From NCBI GenBank assembly GCA_965250065.1, contig OZ252288.1, forward strand, positions 578,693-642,692: a stretch of DNA of 64,000 bases, in the 5' to 3' direction. A program made the translations under genes and the position numbers. Positions 9,512-64,000 of this stretch are shown here, one piece after another (positions within the stretch are counted from its first letter, which is position 1; the number at the start of each line of letters is the position of its first letter). The DNA is from Opitutales bacterium. Its GTDB lineage: Bacteria; Verrucomicrobiota; Verrucomicrobiia; Opitutales; UBA2995. A model generated the notes under the pieces. It made no database searches and was not told where the DNA came from. It saw only the letters and a program-made list of their open reading frames with translations.

Positions 9512-9855
9512 CCTACCGTTCGAACGGGCAATGAAGGAACAGATCCCGATTTACTTAAACCTAATCTATAATGCCAATAGTTCCAGGACCTGGGCGATAA
9601 AACCCCTGGTCCAGAAGACTTCAAAACGTCTACCAACTCATCTATTGAGTATGCGTTCCAAAGCAATGAAAGGTCTTCAAATTCACCAAACTCCATCACC
9701 TGGGCGATAACTCGTTTTGGAAAATGACAAGCTTCCTCAGCCGTTTTCCACCAAATATATTTAGATGCAAAATAACTTAGCAACTGGTCTCGCGTTCTTT
9801 TCATATAATAAAGGCACTTAGTAAAATAGTGTTCTTTTTTTGCTTTAAGAGTCAA
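9508..9855 (-). CDS. Small protein overlapping the AbiEii gene by 4 bp, putative cognate antitoxin
   Basis: 115-aa ORF with an ATGA overlap to 8843-9511. The true start may be an internal Met (MKRTRDQ...). No confident family assignment; the role is inferred from position only. Confidence 0.45.
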   Translation of the reverse strand: MTLKAKKEHYFTKCLYYMKRTRDQLLSYFASKYIWWKTAEEACHFPKRVIAQVMEFGEFEDLSLLWNAYSIDELVDVLKSSGPGVLSPRSWNYWHYRLGLSKSGSVPSLPVRTVG

Positions 9856-12614: not shown

Positions 12615-12772
12615 ATCTTCCTAATCATTCTGAAACGGAAAGATTGTTGACGGGTTATGCTCTACTTTCATGACAGCGCTGCTCTTTGCCGGGACGTTCG
12701 GATGTTCGGCCGCAGTCATGGCCAAGATAGAGACCGTTAAAATCCACTGGGTGAGTAAGGATTTTTTGCATG

Positions 12773-13798: not shown

Positions 13799-13923
13799 CT
13801 CATTTTTTCTGTATTGACCAGGGCAACCAGGGCCGTACCGGTGCAGACATTTGGAGCAGGGTGAAAGATTTAGAAGATTTCCGGGTTAAATTAAGCTACG
13901 ACGGACTGGAATTCTTACTTCAA

Positions 13924-15015: not shown

Positions 15016-15372
15016 AATAGATAAAGGCTTTGGTAGAACTCAAATTAGCCCGGATGTCTCACCACACTAGATAGGGTTGAAACGATCAAGCTAGATGAGG
15101 ATGCATTTTTAAGTCAACAGTTGAACCTTGCTTCATGACACAGTTGCTCACTACCGAGCGAACGCAGATTTAAAGAAAGACCCGGATACCTACGCCATCA
15201 TCGGCGCTTTGCTGATCAATTTTGGGACACCGAGGCTTGATTACAAAAGGTTTGTCGATTCAAAACAACACCTGTGACAATCTGTGTCATCCGCGGTTAA
15301 ATTTCAGCCGATTGTATGTAACCGCAGATTTTCCTGATAATTGAGATGCGTCTCCGATCCGAGATTTGCGGG

Positions 15373-15553
15373 TTAACCCGCATGTCTCACAAAATTCGTG
15401 GCGAGCGAACGAAGGTCGAGTGCTGGTGCGGGCATCGAGCAGATTTGCGGGTGAAGCCGGGTCGACACCCTGCAAAGTCGCGAATCCAACGAGGGCCGCA
15501 CCAATGCCGACATTTCGGAGCGCAGTAGAAAATTTGTGAGACATGCGGGTTAA
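15373..15553. mobile_element. Family A foldback element (MITE/REPIN-like), full copy 1
   Basis: 181 bp. It has perfect 21-nt terminal inverted repeats TTAACCCGCATGTCTCACAAA. The two halves are imperfect reverse complements of each other. It is homologous to 31006-31186 and 63146-63327. Confidence 0.85.
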
Positions 15554-21019: not shown

Positions 21020-21148
21020 ACGTGGATTTCTTTAAAACCCGCTGAGTTTCGTAAATAATGCCCAGGTTAGAGAATGTCGTCTTCAAAAAGCGAGCCATAC
21101 TTGGGTCAACCGTCAACCTTTGACAGGGTCTGATTACCGGGTCGCTCG

Positions 21149-26751: not shown

Positions 26752-26870
26752 AAATCTTATCTCCTTTTATTTTTTAAACGGTTATTATATATCGATTTCG
26801 AAAGGAGTGAAGCAAAATAATGTGTACTGAAAAAAGTGGACACACGATTCTCTTACCGGAGAAACTACTT

Positions 26871-27060
26871 ATGCCACGAAAACGTTACCGTGCCGAGTTC
26901 AAAAAGGAGGCGGCAGCTCTGATGACCGTGCGCTGCATAGTGCTATGCACGGCGCAAGCGTAATGGAGGGGCTGAGCGCGCGGGCGGTCTCGGATAAACT
27001 GGGAGTGAAGCCGGGGGCACTCGGAAAATCTACAGAACCATTCTTGAACAGTGCGAACAA
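26871..27060 (+). mobile_element. Degraded IS3-family orfA (transposase HTH) fragment
   Basis: MPRKRYRAEFKKEAAAL... stops after 30 codons. A shifted frame continues GLSARAVSDKLGVKPGAL. Both resemble the N-terminal HTH of IS3/IS911 OrfA. No orfB and no terminal repeats were seen. Confidence 0.45.
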
Positions 27061-27234
27061 GCCTAACGAAAATTTTGCACTGGGGTGGGCACTCCAATTT
27101 TCATTGGGGCAACTGTCAACCAACTCTCTCACTTTACCGGCTTGCACTTTCAACATTAAGCCTTTAGCATACTTTTCCTTGAAATTATTTGGAATCAGCC
27201 ATCGCTCCATGGGAATCTCCAAGAACAGGGTGCC

Positions 27235-35580: not shown

Positions 35581-38500
35581 TCAGAACAGAAACGTGCTGG
35601 TTAAACGGAAATTGGTTGGATTCATAATCCGTATCTGAGATGGAACATCGTCGCCGGACTTTCGCGTGATGATCAGATCATCGTTATTCAAGGCATTACG
35701 GATATTCAGCTGTATTCTCCAATTTACTTTACCGTCAAAAATCTTGCGCGTGTGGTTAATCCAGAGATCGACGTTGGCTTCGTTCGGACCAAAGAGTGGC
35801 TGAGTAACATCGGCGACAGCTATTTCATCGAGACCCACCGGCAAATCGGCATCGGATGGGGTTAAAATCCCGTCCCGGAAACCGACACCCACTTCATCCT
35901 GCCAGCGATAGGCGCCACCGACGGCCCAACCTTTCAATCTGCTATCATCGTCGAAGCGGTATCTGCTAGCGAGATTGAAACGCCACTCGCGGACTTCATC
36001 CAACAGGGCCCCTTCTCTTAAGGTTCGCCTGAGAAGGAGTGACCACTGCGTACGACGAGTCTGATTGTAAATCGTATTAGCCGTAGAGGGCTCTCCCGGA
36101 TCCGGCATGCCGTTACCATTCAGATCGTCATAATCCTTATACGTGTTCGGTCGCGACAGGAGATCTCCCATGACCAGCCATTGCGGCTCACGAATCTCAA
36201 AATACTTTTTAAACGATTTCAATACATTCGTTTTGATGGCCTTCTGTTGCGCTACATTAAAAACCATGGTCCAATTGCTCGTCGGGTTCCAGACACCCTC
36301 AACTTCCACACCTTCCGATGAAAAGTCGGATACACCCGTCACGTTCGGATTCCCGCGATCGGAAACCGAAATGGCAGTCCCTGGATCCGGACCTGGATCG
36401 ACCGGAGTCCATAAAGCTTGACGCATACCCAGAGGAGGCACCGTGTAGACTTCCGCCCACTTGATGTTATTGGGCCATAACCTCGGATCATCCGGTTCCC
36501 AGGTTTCATATTCTTCTCGTGGCACCGAAGGATCCCTAGGTTCCTTCTCCTGCAGCGAACTGCGAACACCGTTGTACCACAGACGCTCAAAATTCGGGAT
36601 GCCTGAGGTACCCGCGGAACGATCGGTCTGGTTTTTCGAAACCGTCTCATACCAATTGACACGAACGTAGAAGGCTTGGTCCGGCAAGTCGATAGAGAAC
36701 CCGTATTCCTTAGTTGTTCCGGCCGGGCTTGGGTGTGGCTCGTTCAAAATAGTAATTCGGCCCGGTGACGGCACAAAGTTCTCCGACTCCCCGTAGTGAG
36801 CGCTCAAACCAATACCGAAAGGCCGCCAATTTTCAGGAAGGTGTCCCACCACACCCCAGGTAAAGACGTCGCCTTTGACAGAGTCATCGGGATCCGAAGG
36901 AAATTCCAAAGTTTCCGGAAGCGCAATCGCTTCAGCCGTAAATTCAGGACTATCATCCCGCCAGGATTCCGCCTTATCTTCGCGCCAGCCGTAGGTGGCA
37001 ACAATATTGTCGTCCAGTAAATAACTCTGGGCCACTAACGCAACCGATTCGATCTCCTGCCGATCAATCGATGCGTTGTTAACCGAATTGAGAACCAGGG
37101 GCGAACCTTCAACCTTCCGGTAGGCTCCCCTGTGTCCTTCGAAAATAGGATCAGCCGTGCTATCATAGAGAACGGCTGAGATCTCCTGTATCCTGGGATT
37201 TGGTCTTGAGGGCCCACGAGTGGCAAGTGTGCCACTGGACGGTATGCCGGTGATCCTGGGACCGAGGTAACGAATGTTCCGCGCTAACCGGTCATAGGAA
37301 GCGGTTGAGTAACCCCGTTTCCGATTCGCCTCCAGAATCCGTTCGATTTCTCCAGCGGACTGGATACCATAGGAATCCGATTCTTCGTAGACATCACGAG
37401 ACTGATTGGAAAAAAGGCCGGTAAACACGTGGCGGCCCAGCCAGCTCAATTTATCGTGGTCTCTCAGATCCAGATCGTAATACGCGGTAATTCTGAATGC
37501 TTCACGCTCGGAATTGCCGTTTGCAAAATTATCGTTGCCGCGCCTATAAGGTCTACCCACTCTTGGATTTGGAATGAGTATAGGCGTACCGTCTTCTTCT
37601 ACTTCAAAGAAGTAGCCGAAATATTCGCTCGCATCGACTGAGATATCATTTGACGCTCGTTCCAACCATCCGTCTTTTGAATTCTGTTTATCATAAACGA
37701 TTTCGACAGCCGAATTCTGGGAAAACCGTTGTTCGAGCGTTATATTAGCCGCGTCGAACGAACTGAAGGAAGTGTTTTCGGTTCCGGTCAGCGTATTGTT
37801 CCTGAAATCGAACACCCAATCGTCCTCGTCAGACAACACTGCATTGCTAATCGAGGCATTTACATCTTCCCGGTTCCTCCAGGTGTAATGCAAACGCCTG
37901 ATACCGTCAGGACCCGGGGTAGCGGGCAACGAATCAAAACCCAAGGTGGCATGCCTGTCTTCGGGGTTTTCGAAAACATACGAAGGACCACGATTGCCTG
38001 GAACTATACTCCAGCCGCTGGCGGAGCCTGGATCGGGATTCGTTTGCATTCCATTCTTTACCCAATCAGGGATATTCGAGGAGGGCGTGATAATAGGTGG
38101 ACGGCTCGCGTCTCTGCTACCGATTTCCATATTGGCGCGAATCGTCGTTGTTTCGGTTGGGGTCACCAGAAACGCGGCGTAGAGACGTCTTTCATCCTCA
38201 AAAGAGGGCTTTTGCTTAAACCGGTTCTGGTTATTCAAGCCGATAATTCTCACCGCCATAAAATCATCGAAGATGACCCGGTTGATATCGAGGATTTGGC
38301 GATTAGCCCCCCAACTACCGTAACGCAGTTTGATCTCATTTCTTTCCTCGAAGACGGCCTGCTTCAGGTTATTGTTGACGAGGCCGGCGGGACTCCCCAA
38401 TCCAAAGAGAATCGCGTTCGCGCCTTTGGCAATGGTGACGCGGTCGGTGTTGTATGTATCGAATCCTATATCCGAAAGAAAGTAACCGCGAGTTCGGTCG

Positions 38501-38898
38501 GGCTCTGCCAGACCGCGTACGCGAGCACGCCCATTGGGATCACGCCGGTCACCGCCCCCGGCTCCAAAGTTTCCGTCCGGACCGGATACCTCGGTGTTCG
38601 TGGTGTAGAGAAACAAATCCTCAATATTGGTGGATCCCGTGTCCTCGAGGAAATCCTCTGTCACTACCTGAACCGCTCCGGCGAGATCCTTCAGATTGGA
38701 TCTGAGGCGTGTTCCAGCCAAGGTGTTAGTCGCCGCGTAGCCACTATCTTCCTCGCCCGTGATGGTGAAGGGAGACAATTCGAAGATATCTTCCTCTTCC
38801 TCTTCTTGCGCCAGAACTTGGGAAAATCCAGCCGGCAATACCAGCATCAACCCGGTAACCAGCGCGCAAATGTTTTGTTTTAATTCATAGGTGTTCAT
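35581..38898 (-). CDS. TonB-dependent outer-membrane receptor (Verrucomicrobia type)
   Basis: 1105-aa ORF with a signal peptide. It has an acidic linker then FELSPFTITGEEDSGYAATNTLAGTRL (plug domain), a beta-rich body, and a C-terminal ...RLTSTFLF. Confidence 0.85.
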   Translation of the reverse strand: MNTYELKQNICALVTGLMLVLPAGFSQVLAQEEEEEDIFELSPFTITGEEDSGYAATNTLAGTRLRSNLKDLAGAVQVVTEDFLEDTGSTNIEDLFLYTTNTEVSGPDGNFGAGGGDRRDPNGRARVRGLAEPDRTRGYFLSDIGFDTYNTDRVTIAKGANAILFGLGSPAGLVNNNLKQAVFEERNEIKLRYGSWGANRQILDINRVIFDDFMAVRIIGLNNQNRFKQKPSFEDERRLYAAFLVTPTETTTIRANMEIGSRDASRPPIITPSSNIPDWVKNGMQTNPDPGSASGWSIVPGNRGPSYVFENPEDRHATLGFDSLPATPGPDGIRRLHYTWRNREDVNASISNAVLSDEDDWVFDFRNNTLTGTENTSFSSFDAANITLEQRFSQNSAVEIVYDKQNSKDGWLERASNDISVDASEYFGYFFEVEEDGTPILIPNPRVGRPYRRGNDNFANGNSEREAFRITAYYDLDLRDHDKLSWLGRHVFTGLFSNQSRDVYEESDSYGIQSAGEIERILEANRKRGYSTASYDRLARNIRYLGPRITGIPSSGTLATRGPSRPNPRIQEISAVLYDSTADPIFEGHRGAYRKVEGSPLVLNSVNNASIDRQEIESVALVAQSYLLDDNIVATYGWREDKAESWRDDSPEFTAEAIALPETLEFPSDPDDSVKGDVFTWGVVGHLPENWRPFGIGLSAHYGESENFVPSPGRITILNEPHPSPAGTTKEYGFSIDLPDQAFYVRVNWYETVSKNQTDRSAGTSGIPNFERLWYNGVRSSLQEKEPRDPSVPREEYETWEPDDPRLWPNNIKWAEVYTVPPLGMRQALWTPVDPGPDPGTAISVSDRGNPNVTGVSDFSSEGVEVEGVWNPTSNWTMVFNVAQQKAIKTNVLKSFKKYFEIREPQWLVMGDLLSRPNTYKDYDDLNGNGMPDPGEPSTANTIYNQTRRTQWSLLLRRTLREGALLDEVREWRFNLASRYRFDDDSRLKGWAVGGAYRWQDEVGVGFRDGILTPSDADLPVGLDEIAVADVTQPLFGPNEANVDLWINHTRKIFDGKVNWRIQLNIRNALNNDDLIITRKSGDDVPSQIRIMNPTNFRLTSTFLF

Positions 38899-39283
38899 TT
38901 CAAGTTACTCCTTAAGTTGTGTTCCAGTATTTTTCGAGCCGTCGAGCGTGGCTCTGTTCAGCAATTATTTAATAACCATCCAAACCGCAGACAGAAAGGC
39001 AAGATGTAGGAAGGTCGACAGTTGACTATTGCTATTATTGCGCTAATTAACCGGAAAAAAGGGCAAAAATAGAGGAAAACAGCAAAATCCGAGTCAGCAA
39101 CAGACGCGAGCTTTGGTGTATTCCGTGGTTTATCAAAAGCTTGACCACGGATGGGCACGAAGGCACGGAGGCACACATGGGCAGGCGCGATGGCGGGTGG
39201 TGGGCCTGCGGCCTCGGTAGCAAAAGGAGGATGCAGTGCTGTTTCTTTTAACTAAAACATCGTCACTTGTGACTGGATGCCTT

Positions 39284-39373
39284 CCGCCTTCAATGAGTTA
39301 CGGCGTGACAGGTCCGCCTTCAATGAGTTACGGCGTGACAGGTCCGCCTTCAATGAGTTACGGCGTAACAGGT
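39284..39373 (+). repeat. 3 x 30-bp perfect/near-perfect tandem repeat
   Basis: CCGCCTTCAATGAGTTACGGCGTGACAGGT occurs at 39284-39313, 39314-39343 and 39344-39373. The last unit differs by one base. Confidence 0.9.
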
Positions 39374-39610
39374 CGGCAACAGGAAAAACTTTTTTTGTGA
39401 GTAGCCACTACCGAGCCCGTAAAGGCGACATGATCACCAGAAAACAAAAGCACAAAACACTCAAAACTCATCTTGTGGTTTCAGTCCCTTGAAGGTCTTC
39501 CCGTTATAAATTTACCGGCTTTTGAACGCTTTCGATCACGACCACGATATTCTTCAGGATCTTTTCATCTCAGCATCTTGTTAACTCTGTAAATATCTTG
39601 TTCGCGAAGC

Positions 39611-40017
39611 GATCCTGTTCTGGCGAAGCCGGATCAAGCGCAGCGTTGTTCAATATTACCACCCAAACTTTAAGTGAAAAAACTCATCCTTTGAATAGCC
39701 ACTACCGAGCCTGTAAAGGCGATATGATCACCAGAAAACAAAAGCACAAAATATCACAAAACTTTCCTTGTGGCTTCTGTGCTTTCTGTGGCTAAAAATC
39801 CCTGTCCATCCTGTGCATCCATGTTTCATTTATTCGGGAGAAATATCTTGTTCGCGAAGCGAATGTTCCGGTTCAATAAATGCCCGGTCTGTTATGTTGG
39901 TGTCGCTCCGCTCGAAACTGCGCTTCGCTTGTAGATGTGTCACTGTTTTCTTGAGATCATGTCGCTCTGTTCGGAACGTTCGGTAGTTGAGGTGTCGTCG
40001 CATCCGCTCCTCGGTAG
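39611..40017 (+). repeat. 407-bp composite repeat block (modules E, D, C), copy 1
   Basis: It is colinear with 50211-50617 at a constant offset of 10600 bp. There are no indels and I counted 10 mismatches (about 97.5% identity). Confidence 0.9.
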
Positions 40018-40225
40018 TCGGTCACATTCGCTCCTTCGGAACTATTGCGGTGAAGCCGGATCAAGCGAAGCGTTGTTCAATAATATTTCTCAACATCGTC
40101 ACTTGTTGAGGTCTCACCATGCCCGCGCCAGTGCTCGATCTTCGTTCGCACGCCACGAAGTGGGTGATGTCGCGTTCGCTCGGTAGGGGGCTGTCGCGTT
40201 AGCTCGGTAGTGAGATATGCGGGTT

Positions 40226-40269
40226 AAAAAAAGCGCCCCAAGTGATCCCCCTCATTGGTCACTTGGGGC
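40226..40269 (-). terminator. Intrinsic terminator downstream of exoD
   Basis: On the minus strand, an 11-bp perfect stem (GCCCCAAGTGA / TCACTTGGGGC) with a 13-nt loop is followed by GC and a T7 run. It lies about 95 nt after the exoD stop. Confidence 0.7.
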
Positions 40270-40362
40270 TTTGATGAAGAGACCTAAAGCTGACTAAGTC
40301 ATGTCTACATGCGAACCCTGCTATAAAGTGTGTAGTGATGCAACTAGAAAATTTTTATACTT

Positions 40363-41028
40363 TCATCTTCCCTTGGAAAACCAACTCTTGGCGATCTCCA
40401 TGAGTTGATCCACTCCCTGCAGACCGTAGTAACTGATGGCAGTGAAAGCAGCCAAGTAAAGCAACACGGCCAAGACAGCCAAAATGCAAGACAAGAGCAC
40501 ACCCAGTCCGTCGTCTTCAGTCAGGGCGACCCCAATTACAAATATGACCATGGCAGGCGCCGTATTAGTGAGGGGGATGGGTATAATCATAAGCGCGGCC
40601 ATAGTGATGATCAATATGCCGGCAATCAGGTGTCCGCTCCGTGCCAGCACCCACCCCCACCGCGGTTTAATGAGGGGTTCGACGCGTTTAAAAAATCCCA
40701 CGGCCGCGCCAATCATTTTCTGCGCCAGTTTGCGCCCGATTTTTTTCTTGATGGCCCATTTTGGTAACCAGGGAGTTTGACGCCCAACCATCAGCTGCAG
40801 GGCGAGGATGCTGATCACTACCCCGAAAGGCGTACTGTACCCGGGAGCTGGCACCGGCAAGGCGCTGGGCAAAGACAGAACTATTAAAAGCAAGCCGAAC
40901 CCCCGATCGCCCAGAGCCTGGATAAGATCACCCATTTCGATTCCGGCTTCATCACCATGGGAAAGCAGGTTTTTGAGGTCGGTGGACAGGTGAGAATGGC
41001 TCATGGTTGGATAGATTGCTGTTTGCAA
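40363..41028 (-). CDS. exoD: Exopolysaccharide synthesis ExoD-family membrane protein
   Basis: 221-aa ORF. The region GDLIQALGDRGFGLLLIVLSLPSALPVPAPGYSTPFGVVISILALQLMVGRQTPWLPKW matches recalled ExoD family features. Confidence 0.7.
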   Translation of the reverse strand: MQTAIYPTMSHSHLSTDLKNLLSHGDEAGIEMGDLIQALGDRGFGLLLIVLSLPSALPVPAPGYSTPFGVVISILALQLMVGRQTPWLPKWAIKKKIGRKLAQKMIGAAVGFFKRVEPLIKPRWGWVLARSGHLIAGILIITMAALMIIPIPLTNTAPAMVIFVIGVALTEDDGLGVLLSCILAVLAVLLYLAAFTAISYYGLQGVDQLMEIAKSWFSKGR

Positions 41029-41088
41029 TATTTGTGCTTTTGCCGCAAGGTTCTTTTGGGAAACCAGGCGAGAAAAGGGGTCTATCGA

Positions 41089-41136
41089 GATGCTGAGATG
41101 CTGAGATGCTGAGATGCTGAGATGCTGAGATGCTGA
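41089..41136 (+). repeat. 6 x 8-bp microsatellite GATGCTGA
   Basis: Counted directly. Related CTGAG-rich words recur at 42825-42870, 43026-43060, 48295-48320 and 55497-55530. Confidence 0.9.
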
Positions 41137-41741
41137 GAATCAAAGGCACAGGGGCTTTTCTAAATGAAACATGGATGCACAGGATGAACAGGATTTCGGT
41201 AGACCGTTCCGAGGGAGCGAAAGCGACCGACTACCGAGGAGCGGATGCGACGACACCTCAACAAGCGAAGCGTAGTTTCGAGCGAAGCGACACCAACATA
41301 ACAGACCGGGCATTTACTGAACCGGAACATTTTTGCCCACTTATCCTGTCTATCCTGGCCATCCATGTTCAATCCTCCAAGCAAAGAATTGGGGTTGGTG
41401 GAAGGCGTCTACCGAGGGAGGTTGTGACGACACCTATCCGTTTTTGAGTGTAATTTGTTGTCGTGATCGTTATTGAACCTTTCAAAATCAGGGTGTTCAC
41501 ATTATTCGATCAAGATCATGATCAAGATTAAGATTAAGAGGCCTTTGGGGCTTTCAAGGGGGCCTACCGAGAGTTACGGAGGAAAGGGTCAAACCTTAAA
41601 TCCTGCACTGGCGTGCACGATTTGGGGGTTTCGGACTTGGGCCTTGGTAGCAAGAAATGAACCCGACCCTGCATTGGCATACAAGATGGCGGGGTGTCGG
41701 ACAGAGTGCATTTTTTTCAAACTTCGTTTTAGCATAATTTA

Positions 41742-42737: not shown

Positions 42738-43066
42738 AACCGCCAATCGCTTTTAGCCACTACCGGGCCTTTAAAGGCGACATGATCACCAGAAAACAAA
42801 TACACAGAAGAACAGAGTTTTTGAGATGCTGAGGTACTGAGTTTCTGAGAGGGACTGAGGGACGAGGGTACTGAAAGACGAGGTGAGCTAATCTGGAATA
42901 AGGATTAACAACGCTGCGCTTGATGCCTGCGGCAACAGGATGGCACTGCGTGCCAATAGGAATTATTAACCACGGATGACACGGATAGCCGCGGATGGGG
43001 TATCGTGGTCGTAGTGAGGATAAACCTCAGTACCTTAGCATCTCAGTATCTCAGTATCTCGCCCGT

Positions 43067-48558: not shown

Positions 48559-48577
48559 GGGATGGCGCTTGAGAGAA

Positions 48578-48650
48578 CTGTAGGAGGGGGTTTATCCCCC
48601 GATCTTCCAAATGGCCTCACCGCAATCGGGGGATAAACCCCCTCCTACAG
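48578..48650. repeat. Perfect 26-bp inverted repeat, family H double hairpin
   Basis: CTGTAGGAGGGGGTTTATCCCCCGAT (48578-48603) and ATCGGGGGATAAACCCCCTCCTACAG (48625-48650) are separated by a 21-nt spacer. Each arm contains its own GGGGG/CCCCC hairpin. Confidence 0.9.
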
Positions 48651-49205
48651 TTTCGTAATAGGTTATCAATAAAACATCCAGGCGGACGATTGTTTAAGAT
48701 ACCTGAGCAGTTACTATTCGAAAGAAAATTCCTCCTTGGGCGCTTTCGATCATGATCAAGATCACGATCACGATAAACCTCAGCATCTCTGCAACTTAGC
48801 AACTCGGTACCTCTGGGCCATTGTTTTCTGGTGATCATGTCGCCTTTACAGGCTCGGTAGTGGCCAAAAACACAAATTATTGATTTTGAAGGGCGAGACT
48901 GAGTTCAATAGGCGGTTTGCGGCGAAGCCGGACACGTCACGCCGTAGACCTTGCACGTAGCCGAATATCAAGTGACTGAAAGGAACGTTGTTAATAATTG
49001 TTTCTGAACATATTCCTTTGCCAGCCATCGCACATTTTACTGGGTTCTTTCATACAAAAGTTACTAAGAATCTCAGAATCTAAGTGCCTACGAAACTTTG
49101 TGCCTCAGTTCCTCAACATCTTCTCAAAAGAATTGACCCGAATGCTACTGCTTAGTTAAGCGCGTTTGTATAGGAATATAGTATGGACGCCAGTCGGGGT
49201 CATGC

Positions 49206-49411
49206 CGTAGAAAAGTGATGCCTTCCGAAAGAAAAGGCTTCGGGGAAGCGGCGCAAGGGGTCAGGTCCGAAATCCTGCACTGGCGCGTACGATTTTCCGA
49301 CCTGACCCCGAGGGGCGGTATATCGTTGTACTCCATACACTTTTACAAGACAACTGACCCTGTAAGGCATAACTTTTTACGTCTTGACCCCTTCCTTCTC
49401 CCCATTCAGAA
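49206..49411 (+). repeat. 206-bp interspersed repeat, family F (copy 2)
   Basis: It is the reverse complement of 8043-8248. Confidence 0.85.
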
Positions 49412-49915: not shown

Positions 49916-50210
49916 GGGGCATACCCTACAAAGGCACAAAGGCACGAAGGCACACATGGGCAGGCACGATGGCGGGTGGTAGGCCTGTGGCCTCGGTAGT
50001 AGAAGGAGGACGCAGCGCTGTTTCTTTTATCTAAAACATCGCCGCTTTGCGGCTGGATGCCTGCGGCAACAGGATGGAGCTGCGCTCCAACAGGGAACGA
50101 TTGAGGGATCTTCTTTATTTGAATACAAAACCGGACTCTTAATCAATTTTGGAACTCCGAAGATCGAATTCAAAAGACTCTATTCCTGAAATCTCCTGCT
50201 CCGTGTAACG

Positions 50211-50617
50211 GATCCTGTTCCGGCAAAGCCGGATCAAGCGCAGCGTTGTTCAATATTACCACCCAAACTTTAAGTGAAAAAACTCATCCTTTGAATAGCC
50301 ACTACCGAGCCTGTAAAGGCGATATGATCACCAGAAAACAAAAGCACAAAATATCACAAAACTTTCCTTGTGGCTTCTGTGCTTTCTGTGGCTAAACATC
50401 CCTGTGCATCCTGTGCATCCATGTTTCATTTATTCGGGAGAAATATCTTGTTCGCGAAGCGAATGTTCCGGTTCAATAAATGCCCGGTCTGTTATGCTGG
50501 TGTCGCTCTGCTGGAAACTGCGCTTCGCTTGTAGATGTGTCACTGTTTTCTTGAGATCATGTCGCTCTGCTCGGAACGTTCGGTAGTTGAGGTGTCGTCG
50601 CTTCCGCACCTCGGTAG
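50211..50617 (+). repeat. 407-bp composite repeat block, copy 2
   Basis: See 39611-40017. The upstream blocks 49941-50062 and 39154-39283 are also homologous. Confidence 0.9.
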
Positions 50618-51186
50618 ACTCCTTCCTCCAGTGTGAATGGACTCTCGCAAAGGCGCCAAGAACGCAGAGACAGGGATGAGAATTCAATCGGCCAGGAAGT
50701 GCGGTGGATGTGGCGATTAAGGCGCATCATGAGCTTGGCCCGGGTTTGCCTGAAGAAGAAGATCTTGGCGATCTTGGCGGCTTGGCGAGAGCAAATCCAG
50801 ACGAGCCATCCAACCACGCGGAACCATTATGACTTTTTCAGGGTAGACTAAGTACTTCATACTAAAATTCCTGTTCGCGAAGCGATCCTGTTGCGGCGAA
50901 GCCGGATCAAGCGACCAAAGGGAGCGTTGTTATTTGATCCACTCCTTCCCTATCCGTGCACATCCGCGTAATCCGTGGTTTATCTTTTTCACAATTGACC
51001 ACGGATTACACGGATTGACACGGATGTGTTGAGTTGCTAAGGTACGGTGATACTGAGTTACCGAGGAAGGCACGAAGGCACATCGGGACGGAGGCTCCAA
51101 AAGGCTTTTGGAGCCTCAAGTGCTTACCTCTTGACTCACATCCCTTTTTTAAAGCATTTACTAGCCCGCTTTTTGACCGAATTCCG

Positions 51187-52460: not shown

Positions 52461-52685
52461 ATGCTGCGCATCATTCATAAACCCCTGGAGTGTATCGGAT
52501 GCGGTCTATGTTGCGAGGTAGCTCCGAGCTACTGGTACATGAATGATGATGGCTTGGCTGAACTGCGTAATGTATTGTGGGTGAAGGACAATTTGCAGTT
52601 TGGGGAAGGTTGGGAAGAAGATGCCGAGGCGCTTCGTAAAGCGGAGGAAAGCTGTCCGGTAAACATTATTCGGATTGAAGGATAG
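52461..52685 (+). CDS. Small [4Fe-4S]/[3Fe-4S] ferredoxin
   Basis: 74-aa ORF with CIGCGLCCEVAP and a distal CPVNII cysteine. It begins 20 bp after the U32 gene. Confidence 0.75.
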   Translation: MLRIIHKPLECIGCGLCCEVAPSYWYMNDDGLAELRNVLWVKDNLQFGEGWEEDAEALRKAEESCPVNIIRIEG

Positions 52686-52873
52686 GATATAGCCGAACAT
52701 AACCGTGTAAAATTTTTGTTATGCCAGAAGTTTCTATCTATTGGTTTGGACGATACATCGTTTCTATTTACTTGCCAGCTTGCCATGCTGCAACGGCGTT
52801 GTTCGGGCATTTCTTCGTTTTCCTGGTTTTGCAGCCAGGAAAGTAGTCTTCAAAGTTAGATTGTCTCCATTCG

Positions 52874-63641: not shown

Positions 63642-64000
63642 CTAGAAATTAAACCGGTTGGAAATAACCCAACCTCTTGGCGGGGCTGTCCGCGACTGAG
63701 CGAGCAATCCGATATCGGTCATGCGAACCGGGATGAGGTCGCGTTTGTCGGAGAAGACGTTGCTCAGGTTGAGCTGGATGCGCCAGTTTACCTTATTGTT
63801 CCAAATACGCTTGCGATAGGCTAACCGGAACCCCCAGTTGGTTTGGGCTGGACCGAAAAATGGATTTTCGATATCCGGTTTCGGAATACCTTCAGCATCC
63901 GGTGCGATGGGGAAACCGATAGCTACGCGAGATTGGTAGCGCACATTCACCCCTACACCCCAACCTCTGAAAATACCTTCCCGGAAGTCATAGTTGACTA
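63642..64000 (-). CDS. TonB-dependent receptor, C-terminal part (5' end beyond window)
   Basis: The frame stays open to the window edge. VNWRIQLNLSNVF...ISNRFNF* parallels the C-terminus of 35581-38898 (VNWRIQLNIRNAL...TSTFLF*). Confidence 0.75.
   Translation of the reverse strand, partial: VNYDFREGIFRGWGVGVNVRYQSRVAIGFPIAPDAEGIPKPDIENPFFGPAQTNWGFRLAYRKRIWNNKVNWRIQLNLSNVFSDKRDLIPVRMTDIGLLAQSRTAPPRGWVISNRFNF

Follow-up and report, generated by a model that had tools for sequence, protein, structure and literature searches.

What occupies the long intergenic spacers of an Opitutales bacterium, and how did it come to be there? The question is raised by the spacer at 38899-40362 (1,464 bp, ~1.46 kb) of a 64-kb stretch of contig OZ252288.1, which we call the window; the term denotes the whole stretch of 64,000 bp that was analysed, to which the repeat coverage and copy counts given here refer. 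The spacer extends from the start of a TonB-dependent receptor gene on one side to the stop of an ExoD gene on the other. Its comparison with the window by BLAST indicated that nearly continuous sequence from 39154 to 40237 (~1,080 of the 1,464 bases) has matches elsewhere in the window, the only unique parts being 38899-39153 and 40238-40362. An initial sequence-only reading had proposed that the long spacers are assembled from one set of short modules, designated by letters, many of which end in a GTAG word recalling the repetitive extragenic palindromic (REP) sequences of enterobacteria. The analysis reported here favors, with a probability of roughly 0.62, the explanation that the spacer is an accumulation zone for several small, non-coding, non-autonomous mobile repeat families, which were later reshuffled.

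Results

Intergenic DNA makes up about one-fifth of the window and roughly half of it is repeat-derived, with 6,004 of 13,156 intergenic bases (46%) recurring within the 64 kb. Repeats were present in every spacer longer than 300 bp save that at 26752-27234, and the repeats inside genes were all located in paralogous gene pairs (DUF1552, PSCyt or SSF), non-paralogous coding DNA having none. The four short spacers that had been called unique (12615-12772, 13799-13923, 21020-21148 and 52687-52873) indeed had a repeat coverage of zero, and the positions listed earlier for modules C, D and E and for a fused A/B end at 15045-15070 were all recovered. Three signature words were also in excess over the expectation from 100 shuffles, in none of which (0/100 for each word) was the observed count reached: CTCGGTAG was observed 20 times against 0.76 expected, with 19 of the 20 sites being intergenic, GGGGTCA 28 times against 10.5, with 22 of the 28 sites being intergenic, and GCGNAGC 57 times against 29. 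Tandem arrays with units of variable size (6-32 bp) were found across the spacers, including the 8-bp array (GAGATGCT)n at 41087-41138 on the plus strand, which was detected by a tandem repeat and word scan, the (AATTCCT)n array at 58079-58125 and further arrays of GGCACNNN words and of GATCAC words.

Several familiar sources of intergenic sequence were considered and rejected. tRNA-derived repeats were ruled out, as no tRNA or tmRNA genes were found in the window. Known non-coding RNA was likewise ruled out, with no Rfam 15 family matching at the gathering thresholds; at an E-value of ≤0.5, there were two sub-threshold long-hairpin matches to microRNA precursor models. As for coding relics, the open reading frames (ORFs) of the target spacer were short and of low complexity, none being plausible, and as for promoter or terminator function, the motif counts were at the shuffle level, with no excess.

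The family that carries most of the argument for mobility is A/B, which behaves like a miniature inverted-repeat transposable element (MITE). A simple family A element at 15377-15549 on the plus strand is 173 bp long and has 14-bp terminal inverted repeats (TIRs), CCCGCATGTCTCAC and GTGAGACATGCGGG, with TTAA on both flanks, and the simple copies at 31010-31182 and 63150-63323 have CTAG on both flanks. The same TIR pair bounds all three of these copies (173-174 bp) as well as a 457-bp composite. Elements of this type can alternatively terminate in the B end, CTAGTGTGGTGTCCCAG, and module C was found to sit within A-type elements, which bears out the earlier suggestion from the fused A/B end that the families combine. 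Within the family, the TIRs are 14-17 bp long and the flanks match YTAR (TTAA/TTAA, CTAG/CTAG and CTAG/CTAG), these flanks being palindromic and alternatively readable as extensions of the terminal repeats. Five copies in the window have both termini and at least seven are solo ends; the copies are 173-457 bp in size and carry no gene-like ORFs.

The composite A element at 57726-58182 on the plus strand has both terminal repeats, between which lie arrays of 24-bp and 32-bp units together with module C and the (AATTCCT)n array. A direct duplication of 13-16 bp, TTAGYYTTGGCAACTT (14 of 16 bases identical), flanks the element. The sister lineage L081 lacks the element in its orthologous QueC-QueG spacer, in which the flanks align on both sides. 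This filled site and its empty counterpart represent the clearest insertion event. The family thus presents three of the features by which a MITE is recognized, namely, TIRs, a target-site duplication together with an empty site, and small, non-coding, multiple copies. Two side observations concern the same elements. Genes contain few CTAG sites (21 in 50.8 kb) compared with spacers (23 in 13.2 kb), and this word makes up the flanks or ends of A/B elements. In addition, a solo family A terminal repeat, GTGAGATATGCGGGTTAA, at 60980-60997 provides the last six codons and the stop of the methyltransferase gene at 60017-60997, and a methyltransferase-gene ending from the family A repeat is also found in the strain L084 (18133-18149).

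The elements are also nested and duplicated in blocks. The composite A/B element at 8444-8805 on the minus strand consists of an A terminus, three 24-mer units, the left part of the A core, an H2 unit, C, the right part of the A core and a B-type terminus, and an internal order of A-left, H2, C (C1, C2) and A-right recurs in three composites (8444-8805, 33358-33929 and 57726-58182). Both C and units bounded by GGGGTCA were found inside A-type elements. In the target spacer, C splits a copy of module E into E-left and E-right; a 9-bp target duplication around this C was considered and rejected, because the word common to E and C, TGTTCCGG, is also part of C's own end at 41206-41331. The spacer at 49916-51033 on the plus strand, confirmed in the independent assembly L084, is colinear with the target spacer, with G1, the 30-mer, E, D, X, E-left, C and E. 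The order G1, 30-mer, E, D, X, E-left and C is common to these two longest spacers, and the block 50211-50617 corresponds to 39611-40017 over 407 bp with an identity of 97.5%, indicating that the two were not assembled independently. Accordingly, the proposal that long spacers contain the same modules reordered holds in that the module set is limited and used in both orientations (A, C and D being present in both), but the orders derive in part from one duplicated composite block of at least 407 bp.

Comparison with relatives supports rapid turnover of this content. The sister lineages L081 and L082/L083/L090, of which the coding DNA is ~80% identical to that of the window, carry E, X, the F core, H units, A ends, a REP unit and short-word arrays, mostly in non-orthologous spacers. 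The modules are thus found in L081-L084 and L090 and are not confined to the window, contrary to an outcome that the sequence-only reading had set against itself. They were absent from loci of the type of "Opitutia bacterium ISCC 51", the nearest named relative (with an ExoD protein 74% identical), and from 80 distant loci (84 more distant loci and ~1.3 Mb in all). Relatives found through a CcsA-like protein (≤40% identity), which were used as a negative control, gave no module hits. An exact-pattern scan for module D in species-representative genomes gave 0 matches, as did exact scans for module E in the metagenomes of the Joint Genome Institute (JGI) and in viral contigs; the clade is rare in these three collections.

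The YjgF-U32 spacer has three unrelated fills in L082, L083 and L090, of which the genes are 95-97% identical, and orthologous spacers are much longer in the species of the window, that between CcsA and YjgF being 1,364 bp long compared with 171-565 bp in relatives. Furthermore, the spacer at 62879-63650, which holds a family A element and unique DNA, differs wholly in content from its counterpart in L084 (19974-20533), which holds module E and word arrays, in strains that are otherwise 99% identical. The large gene downstream of it is only 84% identical to that of L084, which suggests a recombination boundary. Between two strains of ~1% divergence, substitutions amounted to 0.9% in genes and 1.2% in spacers, and all nine indels (9/9) were in spacers. 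In four of the nine, tandem arrays had gained or lost whole units (one of 30 bp, two of 8 bp and one of 7 bp), and a 33-bp indel was located inside module E between direct AAGCCGGA repeats. The 30-bp array in the paralogous spacer has one unit in the window and two in L084, and the GAGATGCT array is longer in the sister strain by ~112 bp (~14 units), as calculated arithmetically from alignment offsets.

Taken together, these results are consistent with a process in which selfish non-autonomous elements would accumulate in the permissive part of spacers, between terminator and promoter, and would insert into one another, after which composite blocks would duplicate, modules would join at common short words, such as TGTTCCGG of E and C, and tandem arrays would slip. 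A DDE transposase of the insertion sequence (IS) type IS630 or IS5, encoded elsewhere in the genome, may move the TIR elements, and tyrosine (HUH) transposases of the RAYT (REP-associated tyrosine transposase) or TIRYT (TIR-associated tyrosine transposase) type may move GTAG REPs, GGGGTCA units and perhaps E as single-stranded DNA. The resulting mosaic would have no required host function, and the sequence conservation of the modules would reflect the needs of propagation or exchange between lineages. That the module cores are more conserved than genes fits a constraint imposed by a mobilizing enzyme or an exchange between lineages, and it leaves room for a host function.

Several observations weigh against this explanation. 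Neither the window nor ~150 kb of related loci showed a transposase gene of any kind, so that the links to enzymes are all inferred. Convincing terminal repeats or target duplications are lacking in C, D, E, G1 and X, and the 13-16-bp duplication of the composite A copy is at odds with the 4-bp flanks of the simple copies. The comparison of syntenic spacers between strains, which the sequence-only reading had recommended as a means of detecting recent gain or loss, brought out the changes in array units described above and, at 1% divergence, no insertion or excision of a whole module, recent mobility being seen only in the between-species comparison. Finally, cores more conserved than genes and a strong strand bias of E were observed, neither of which is predicted for neutral junk.

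An alternative is that one or a few tyrosine transposases of the RAYT type act on every module, C, D, E and the 24-mers among them, and would cut at (C)GGTAG in single-stranded DNA and join the products as proposed for the bacterial interspersed mosaic elements (BIMEs) of E. coli. The excess of CTCGGTAG and its concentration in spacers are in line with such a single REP/BIME-type system, as is the fact that many units end in a small GC hairpin followed by TCGGTAG. The CGGTAG-bearing units have a loose common pattern of ATGTCGC, a variable stretch and CTCGGTAG. However, the stems beside CGGTAG are only 3-5 bp long in C, D and the 24-mer units, and no GTAG with a stem of ≥6 bp behind it was detected when these modules were scanned for that pattern. 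The DNA fold z-scores relative to shuffles (-0.5 for D, +1.1 for the A half and +2.8 for C) indicate folding no better than that of shuffled sequences. Because of these short stems and this folding, the analogy with REPs, which would require a palindromic stem-loop of ~6-9 bp, fails for the CTCGGTAG units, and the likeness drawn earlier from the GTAG endings of C, D and the 24-mers was not borne out.

The window nevertheless contains a genuine GTAG REP unit, consisting of GTAGGA, a 5-bp stem, TTTAY, the complementary stem and GAT. Its stem variants (GGGGG/CCCCC, GGGGC/GCCCC, GCGGG/CCCGC and GCGGC/GCCGC) all pair perfectly. Five units were found in the window and a further one in L081; the first letters are GTAG in four units and GCAG in one. 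They include a REPIN-like inverted REP doublet (GTAGGA-GGGGG-TTTAT-CCCCC-GAT) at 48576-48652, given without strand, which also scores as a generic long hairpin, a second inverted doublet at 30915-30991 and a single unit at 3892-3919. The GTAG-tagged stem-loop, the compensating stem changes and the inverted doublets identify this family as REP/REPIN, and its presence alongside the other repeats is in keeping with a single tyrosine-transposase system. It is not organized as a BIME, since the true REP units stand apart from the main mosaic and none lies in 38899-40362.

The same alternative is favored by the GGGGTCA termini. GGGGTCA(G) and TGACCCC, which delimit module F as well as the 53-nt hairpin units, fit the motif GGGGWSAS that is found in TIRs adjoining TIRYT tyrosine transposases (PMC3733652). 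Module F is a 210-bp element at 49195-49404 on the plus strand with GGGGTCA/TGACCCC termini and an internal 53-nt hairpin unit, and its inverted copy is located at 8040-8249 (I1, 96% complementary). A strand bias such as that of E, described below, is also expected from insertion at the lagging-strand template (PMC6006769). On the other hand, family A has TIRs of the double-stranded type and duplicated flanks, which are not products of single-strand Y1 transposition, a Y1 transposase gene was seen in none of the loci, and A, C and D occur in both orientations. We therefore regard a single REP/BIME-type system as an improbable account of the whole. In a separate observation on hairpins, a long imperfect inverted repeat at 3620-3840 has 53-nt arms that are 75% complementary, with a GCGNAGC-type motif in each arm, and a 94-97-nt hairpin in L090 (11205-11301) is related to it.

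It could also be argued that the modules are host-functional cis elements kept by selection, such as binding-site arrays, mobile promoters or leaders, or RNA stabilizers. The cores are 96-100% identical between lineages with coding DNA of ~80% identity. The 78-nt F core (8049-8126 on the minus strand, 49318-49395 on the plus strand, 9105-9182 in L083 and 8353-8430 in L082; 95-96% identical) lies upstream of a gene in three contexts and immediately so in two, ending within ~20 bp of the start of YjgF/RidA and of a small ferredoxin gene (L082/L083), the third context being ~100 bp upstream of a DUF1552 gene. The F core carries repeated TTGACCCCTTCC motifs and may be a mobile promoter or leader. 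For the modules in general, however, positions relative to genes are inconsistent, presence or absence in a given spacer varies even among genomes that are 95-97% identical, and there is neither an excess of promoter or terminator motifs nor a match in Rfam.

Module E is where a host function has the most to draw on. Its consensus, CTGTTCGCGAAGCGATCCTGTTCCGGCGAAGCCGGATCAAGCGNAGCGTTGTT, is ~60 nt long and forms three small GNA-loop hairpins (TCGC-GAA-GCGA, CTGGC-GAA-GCCGG and CAAGC-GCA-GC-G-TTG), with up to three GCGNAGC mini-hairpin motifs per copy, and its 26-nt core is identical across lineages with coding DNA ~80% identical. GCGNAGC is a documented, extraordinarily stable DNA mini-hairpin, a type that occurs at primase-dependent origins (PMC13037366). 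In a subfamily (window 55664 and L090), the central hairpin has changed from TCCGGC/GCCGGA to TCTGCT/AGCAGA, three pairs being altered with pairing kept. Fourteen of the 15 independent copies are on the plus strand regardless of the direction of neighboring genes, and the strand bearing E is the lagging-strand template as judged from GC skew. On this view, E could act as a strand-specific signal in the single-stranded DNA of the lagging-strand template, e.g., a primase or primosome (single-strand initiation, ssi-like) site. Against this, one copy is reversed (42905-42964), the compensatory changes represent one subfamily event and could also arise by hairpin-templated mutation, and there is no E copy left of 39 kb. 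Considering both sides, selection for host function also seems unlikely to explain the modules.

There is a slim chance, judged from the sequence, that E is a strand-polar single-stranded DNA element rather than ordinary junk, and it is the only feature here that could be new. One possibility is that it represents an end or a relic of an undescribed HUH-mobilized element that inserts at replication forks; another is that it is a chromosomal single-strand initiation or fork-associated signal. The evidence for something new is thin, comprising ~15 copies, one chromosomal region and one compensatory event. An integron attC site was considered and set aside, as E departs from the core-site consensus and has housekeeping genes as its neighbors.

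Artefacts of assembly, in the form of collapsed or chimeric repeats, and the decay of coding sequence are both very improbable as an explanation. It is true that the family A fragment of the target spacer is where a sister-strain contig (L085) breaks off, as repeats would be expected to cause in short assemblies, and that long ORFs cross some repeat-rich spacers, e.g., at 33375-34034. However, the independent metagenome assembly of the same species (L084/L085; 98-99.5% identical) reproduced the other repeat-rich spacers that it covers with 98-100% identity, which answers the concern about artefacts raised in the earlier reading, the same modules were present in four other independent assemblies, and the ORF at 33375-34034 had no Pfam match, the ORFs of the target spacer being those dismissed above.

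Having weighed these alternatives, we return to the explanation by several mobile families and to the layout of the target spacer, which is told from the receptor gene toward the ExoD gene. The TonB-dependent receptor gene (35581-38898), identified by its Plug domain, and the ExoD gene (40363-41028) are both on the minus strand. The unique, A+T-rich and repeat-free stretch at 38899-39153 (minus strand, no self-match) adjoins the receptor start codon and is probably the promoter and 5' leader of the receptor gene. Module G1 follows at 39154-39282 (plus strand; 87% identity to 49933-50067; fold z-score -1.4) and contains, in order, degenerate GGCACNNN/CACGGAT words, the small hairpin GGCCTGCGGCC, TCGGTAG and a second hairpin. 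Next to it, 3.1 copies of the 30-bp unit TCCGCCTTCAATGAGTTACGGCGTGACAGG form a tandem array at 39283-39374 (plus strand; Tandem Repeats Finder). A first copy of module D, with the core AGCCACTACCGAGCCYGTAAAGGCGAYATGATCACCAGAAAACAAA and a tail, occupies 39384-39490 (plus strand; families D9, I11 and I14), GATCAC and CTCAGCATC words occupy 39529-39590, and a full copy of E lies at 39592-39652 on the plus strand, as supported by an nhmmer E-value of 6e-21, alignment and pair counts.

Beyond E are the second copy of D at 39678-39785 (plus strand), identified by self-comparison of the window, and module X (CCTGTCCATCCTGTGCATCCATGTTTCATTTATTCGG) at 39801-39837 (plus strand; family D19, four copies), which is also found in L090, L082 and L083. 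E-left, the left third of module E, is at 39842-39862 (plus strand) and meets C at the common word TGTTCCGG. The long form of C spans 39862-40042 (plus strand; I5, I10 and D13; fold z-score +2.8) and was compared with the minus-strand copy at 41206-41331; its ends bear short inverted words, GTTCCGG and CGGAAC, CGGTAG occurs in it twice, and it folds worse than shuffled sequence. E-right (40052-40079, plus strand) represents unit positions 34-61 of module E and is followed by a small hairpin at 40089-40110. Half of a family A element lies at 40119-40227 on the plus strand and comprises part of the core, a pair of 24-bp units that end in CTCGGTAG and, as its terminal repeat, GTGAGATATGCGGGTTAA. 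Its terminus abuts the intrinsic terminator of the ExoD gene (40232-40275, minus strand), an 11-bp stem followed by TTTTTTT, of which the z-score was -3.9, with no shuffle equally stable. The repeats are thus confined to the stretch from the ExoD terminator to the promoter-proximal 255 bp of the receptor gene.

Each copy of module D (39433-39495, 39727-39798, 42785- and, on the minus strand, 48834-) contains AAAGGCGAYATG followed by a short ORF, and the Shine-Dalgarno-like spacing before these ORFs was noted. The copies have MITRKQ in common and then diverge, conservation being limited to the module core, and the ORF is therefore probably not a gene.

The target spacer also lies near a change in gene orientation: the minus strand carries most genes as far as 41028, and the plus strand most of those from 41742 onward. 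The cumulative GC skew has its minimum at the same place (38900-41740). A replication origin (oriC) at 39-41.7 kb was considered on account of the skew and the strand switch but was rejected: DnaA boxes (TTATCCACA, ≤1 mismatch) numbered 16 against 12 expected, with only one in the target spacer and no cluster, and the position coincides with a synteny break at 38900-41740, where L090 and ISCC 51 have other genes downstream of the ExoD gene.

The gene content of the window is of the type of the Planctomycetes-Verrucomicrobia-Chlamydiae (PVC) bacteria, including PSCyt/PSD/DUF1552 pairs, sulfatases, a GH2 enzyme, SSS transporters and queuosine genes. Among other features, a conserved 74-aa ferredoxin gene (Fer4_15/Fer4_13 in relatives) is present at 52461-52686, which counts as a spacer under a 100-aa ORF cutoff. 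The region 27773-28933 is a partial duplication of the DUF1552/PSCyt pair at 1-810 and 3076-3243, with 85-92% identity, and contains apparent gene fragments in 28525-28936. A stretch of low GC content (43%) between two repeat-rich spacers contains a gene for an AbiEii-type toxin (8843-9511) and, upstream of it, a partner of 115 aa (together 8843-9855).

Discussion

This study describes spacers that contain a MITE-like family, a small REP/REPIN family, GGGGTCA-bounded units and modules such as C, D and E, and shows that small mobile repeats can be borne in large and rapidly changing numbers by a free-living marine lineage of the Opitutia. Breaks in metagenome assemblies of these organisms are explained by the repeats, which also mark a synteny breakpoint. 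The 7-, 8- and 30-bp arrays could serve as hypervariable markers for strain typing. If the strand polarity of E proves to be tied to replication, it would be an exception to otherwise known biology. MITEs, REPs/REPINs and BIME-like mosaics are already established (PMC3116915, PMC6006769). GTAG REP families have been reported in Opitutus terrae and Rhodopirellula baltica, together with tyrosine-transposase genes with flanking repeats in the latter (PMC3733652), so that the view expressed before, that no such system had been described for PVC bacteria, was too strong. As such repeats are familiar and Opitutus itself was already known to carry GTAG REPs, the understanding of such repeats in general is unchanged. 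In the library that was searched, we found no description of the present families and nothing specific on Opitutales or ISCC 51.

The comparison with known systems can be made family by family. Bacterial MITEs, e.g., Correia/NEMIS of Neisseria and Nezha of cyanobacteria, are derived from IS630- or IS5-type elements. Family A resembles them in its length of 173 bp, inverted termini, palindromic YTAR flanks, non-coding nature, several copies and filled/empty site, whereas it differs in the single 13-16-bp duplication, modular interiors holding other repeats and interchangeable A and B termini. The BOX elements of Streptococcus pneumoniae are modular spacer repeats with sub-boxes in variable number and a fixed A-B-C order. 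The modules of the window are likewise modular and located in spacers, but their sequence is unrelated and no fixed order is kept across all spacers.

With respect to tyrosine-transposase-linked repeats, the REP units of the window resemble the GTAG-tagged families described in PVC bacteria (Di Nocera et al, 2013, PMC3733652), among them those of Opitutus terrae, a member of the same bacterial class, in having a GTAG stem-loop, alternative stems and inverted dimers, although, in this comparison by description, the stem of 5 bp is at the short end of the range and there are five units in 64 kb. The doublets are arranged like the REPINs of Pseudomonas fluorescens (Bertels and Rainey, 2011, PMC3116915), with an inverted REP pair, a short spacer and one long hairpin; the likeness is one of sequence arrangement, the sequences being unrelated. 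The 53-nt units and module F resemble TIRYT-linked TIR repeats (PMC3733652) in their fit to GGGGWSAS, moderate abundance and frequent grouping, whereas the match is one of a 7-8-nt motif only, and no transposase gene was seen nearby. The closest parallel for the mosaic as a whole is provided by the BIMEs and REPs of enterobacteria (Gilson et al, 1991, summarized in PMC6006769), which similarly form extragenic clusters of few motifs in varied combinations and orientations, often after terminators, and include a GTAG-tagged palindromic unit, as do the spacers of the window. Unlike BIMEs, the mosaic of the window consists mainly of non-palindromic modules of 60-210 nt and a TIR-bounded element, the REP unit being a minor component.

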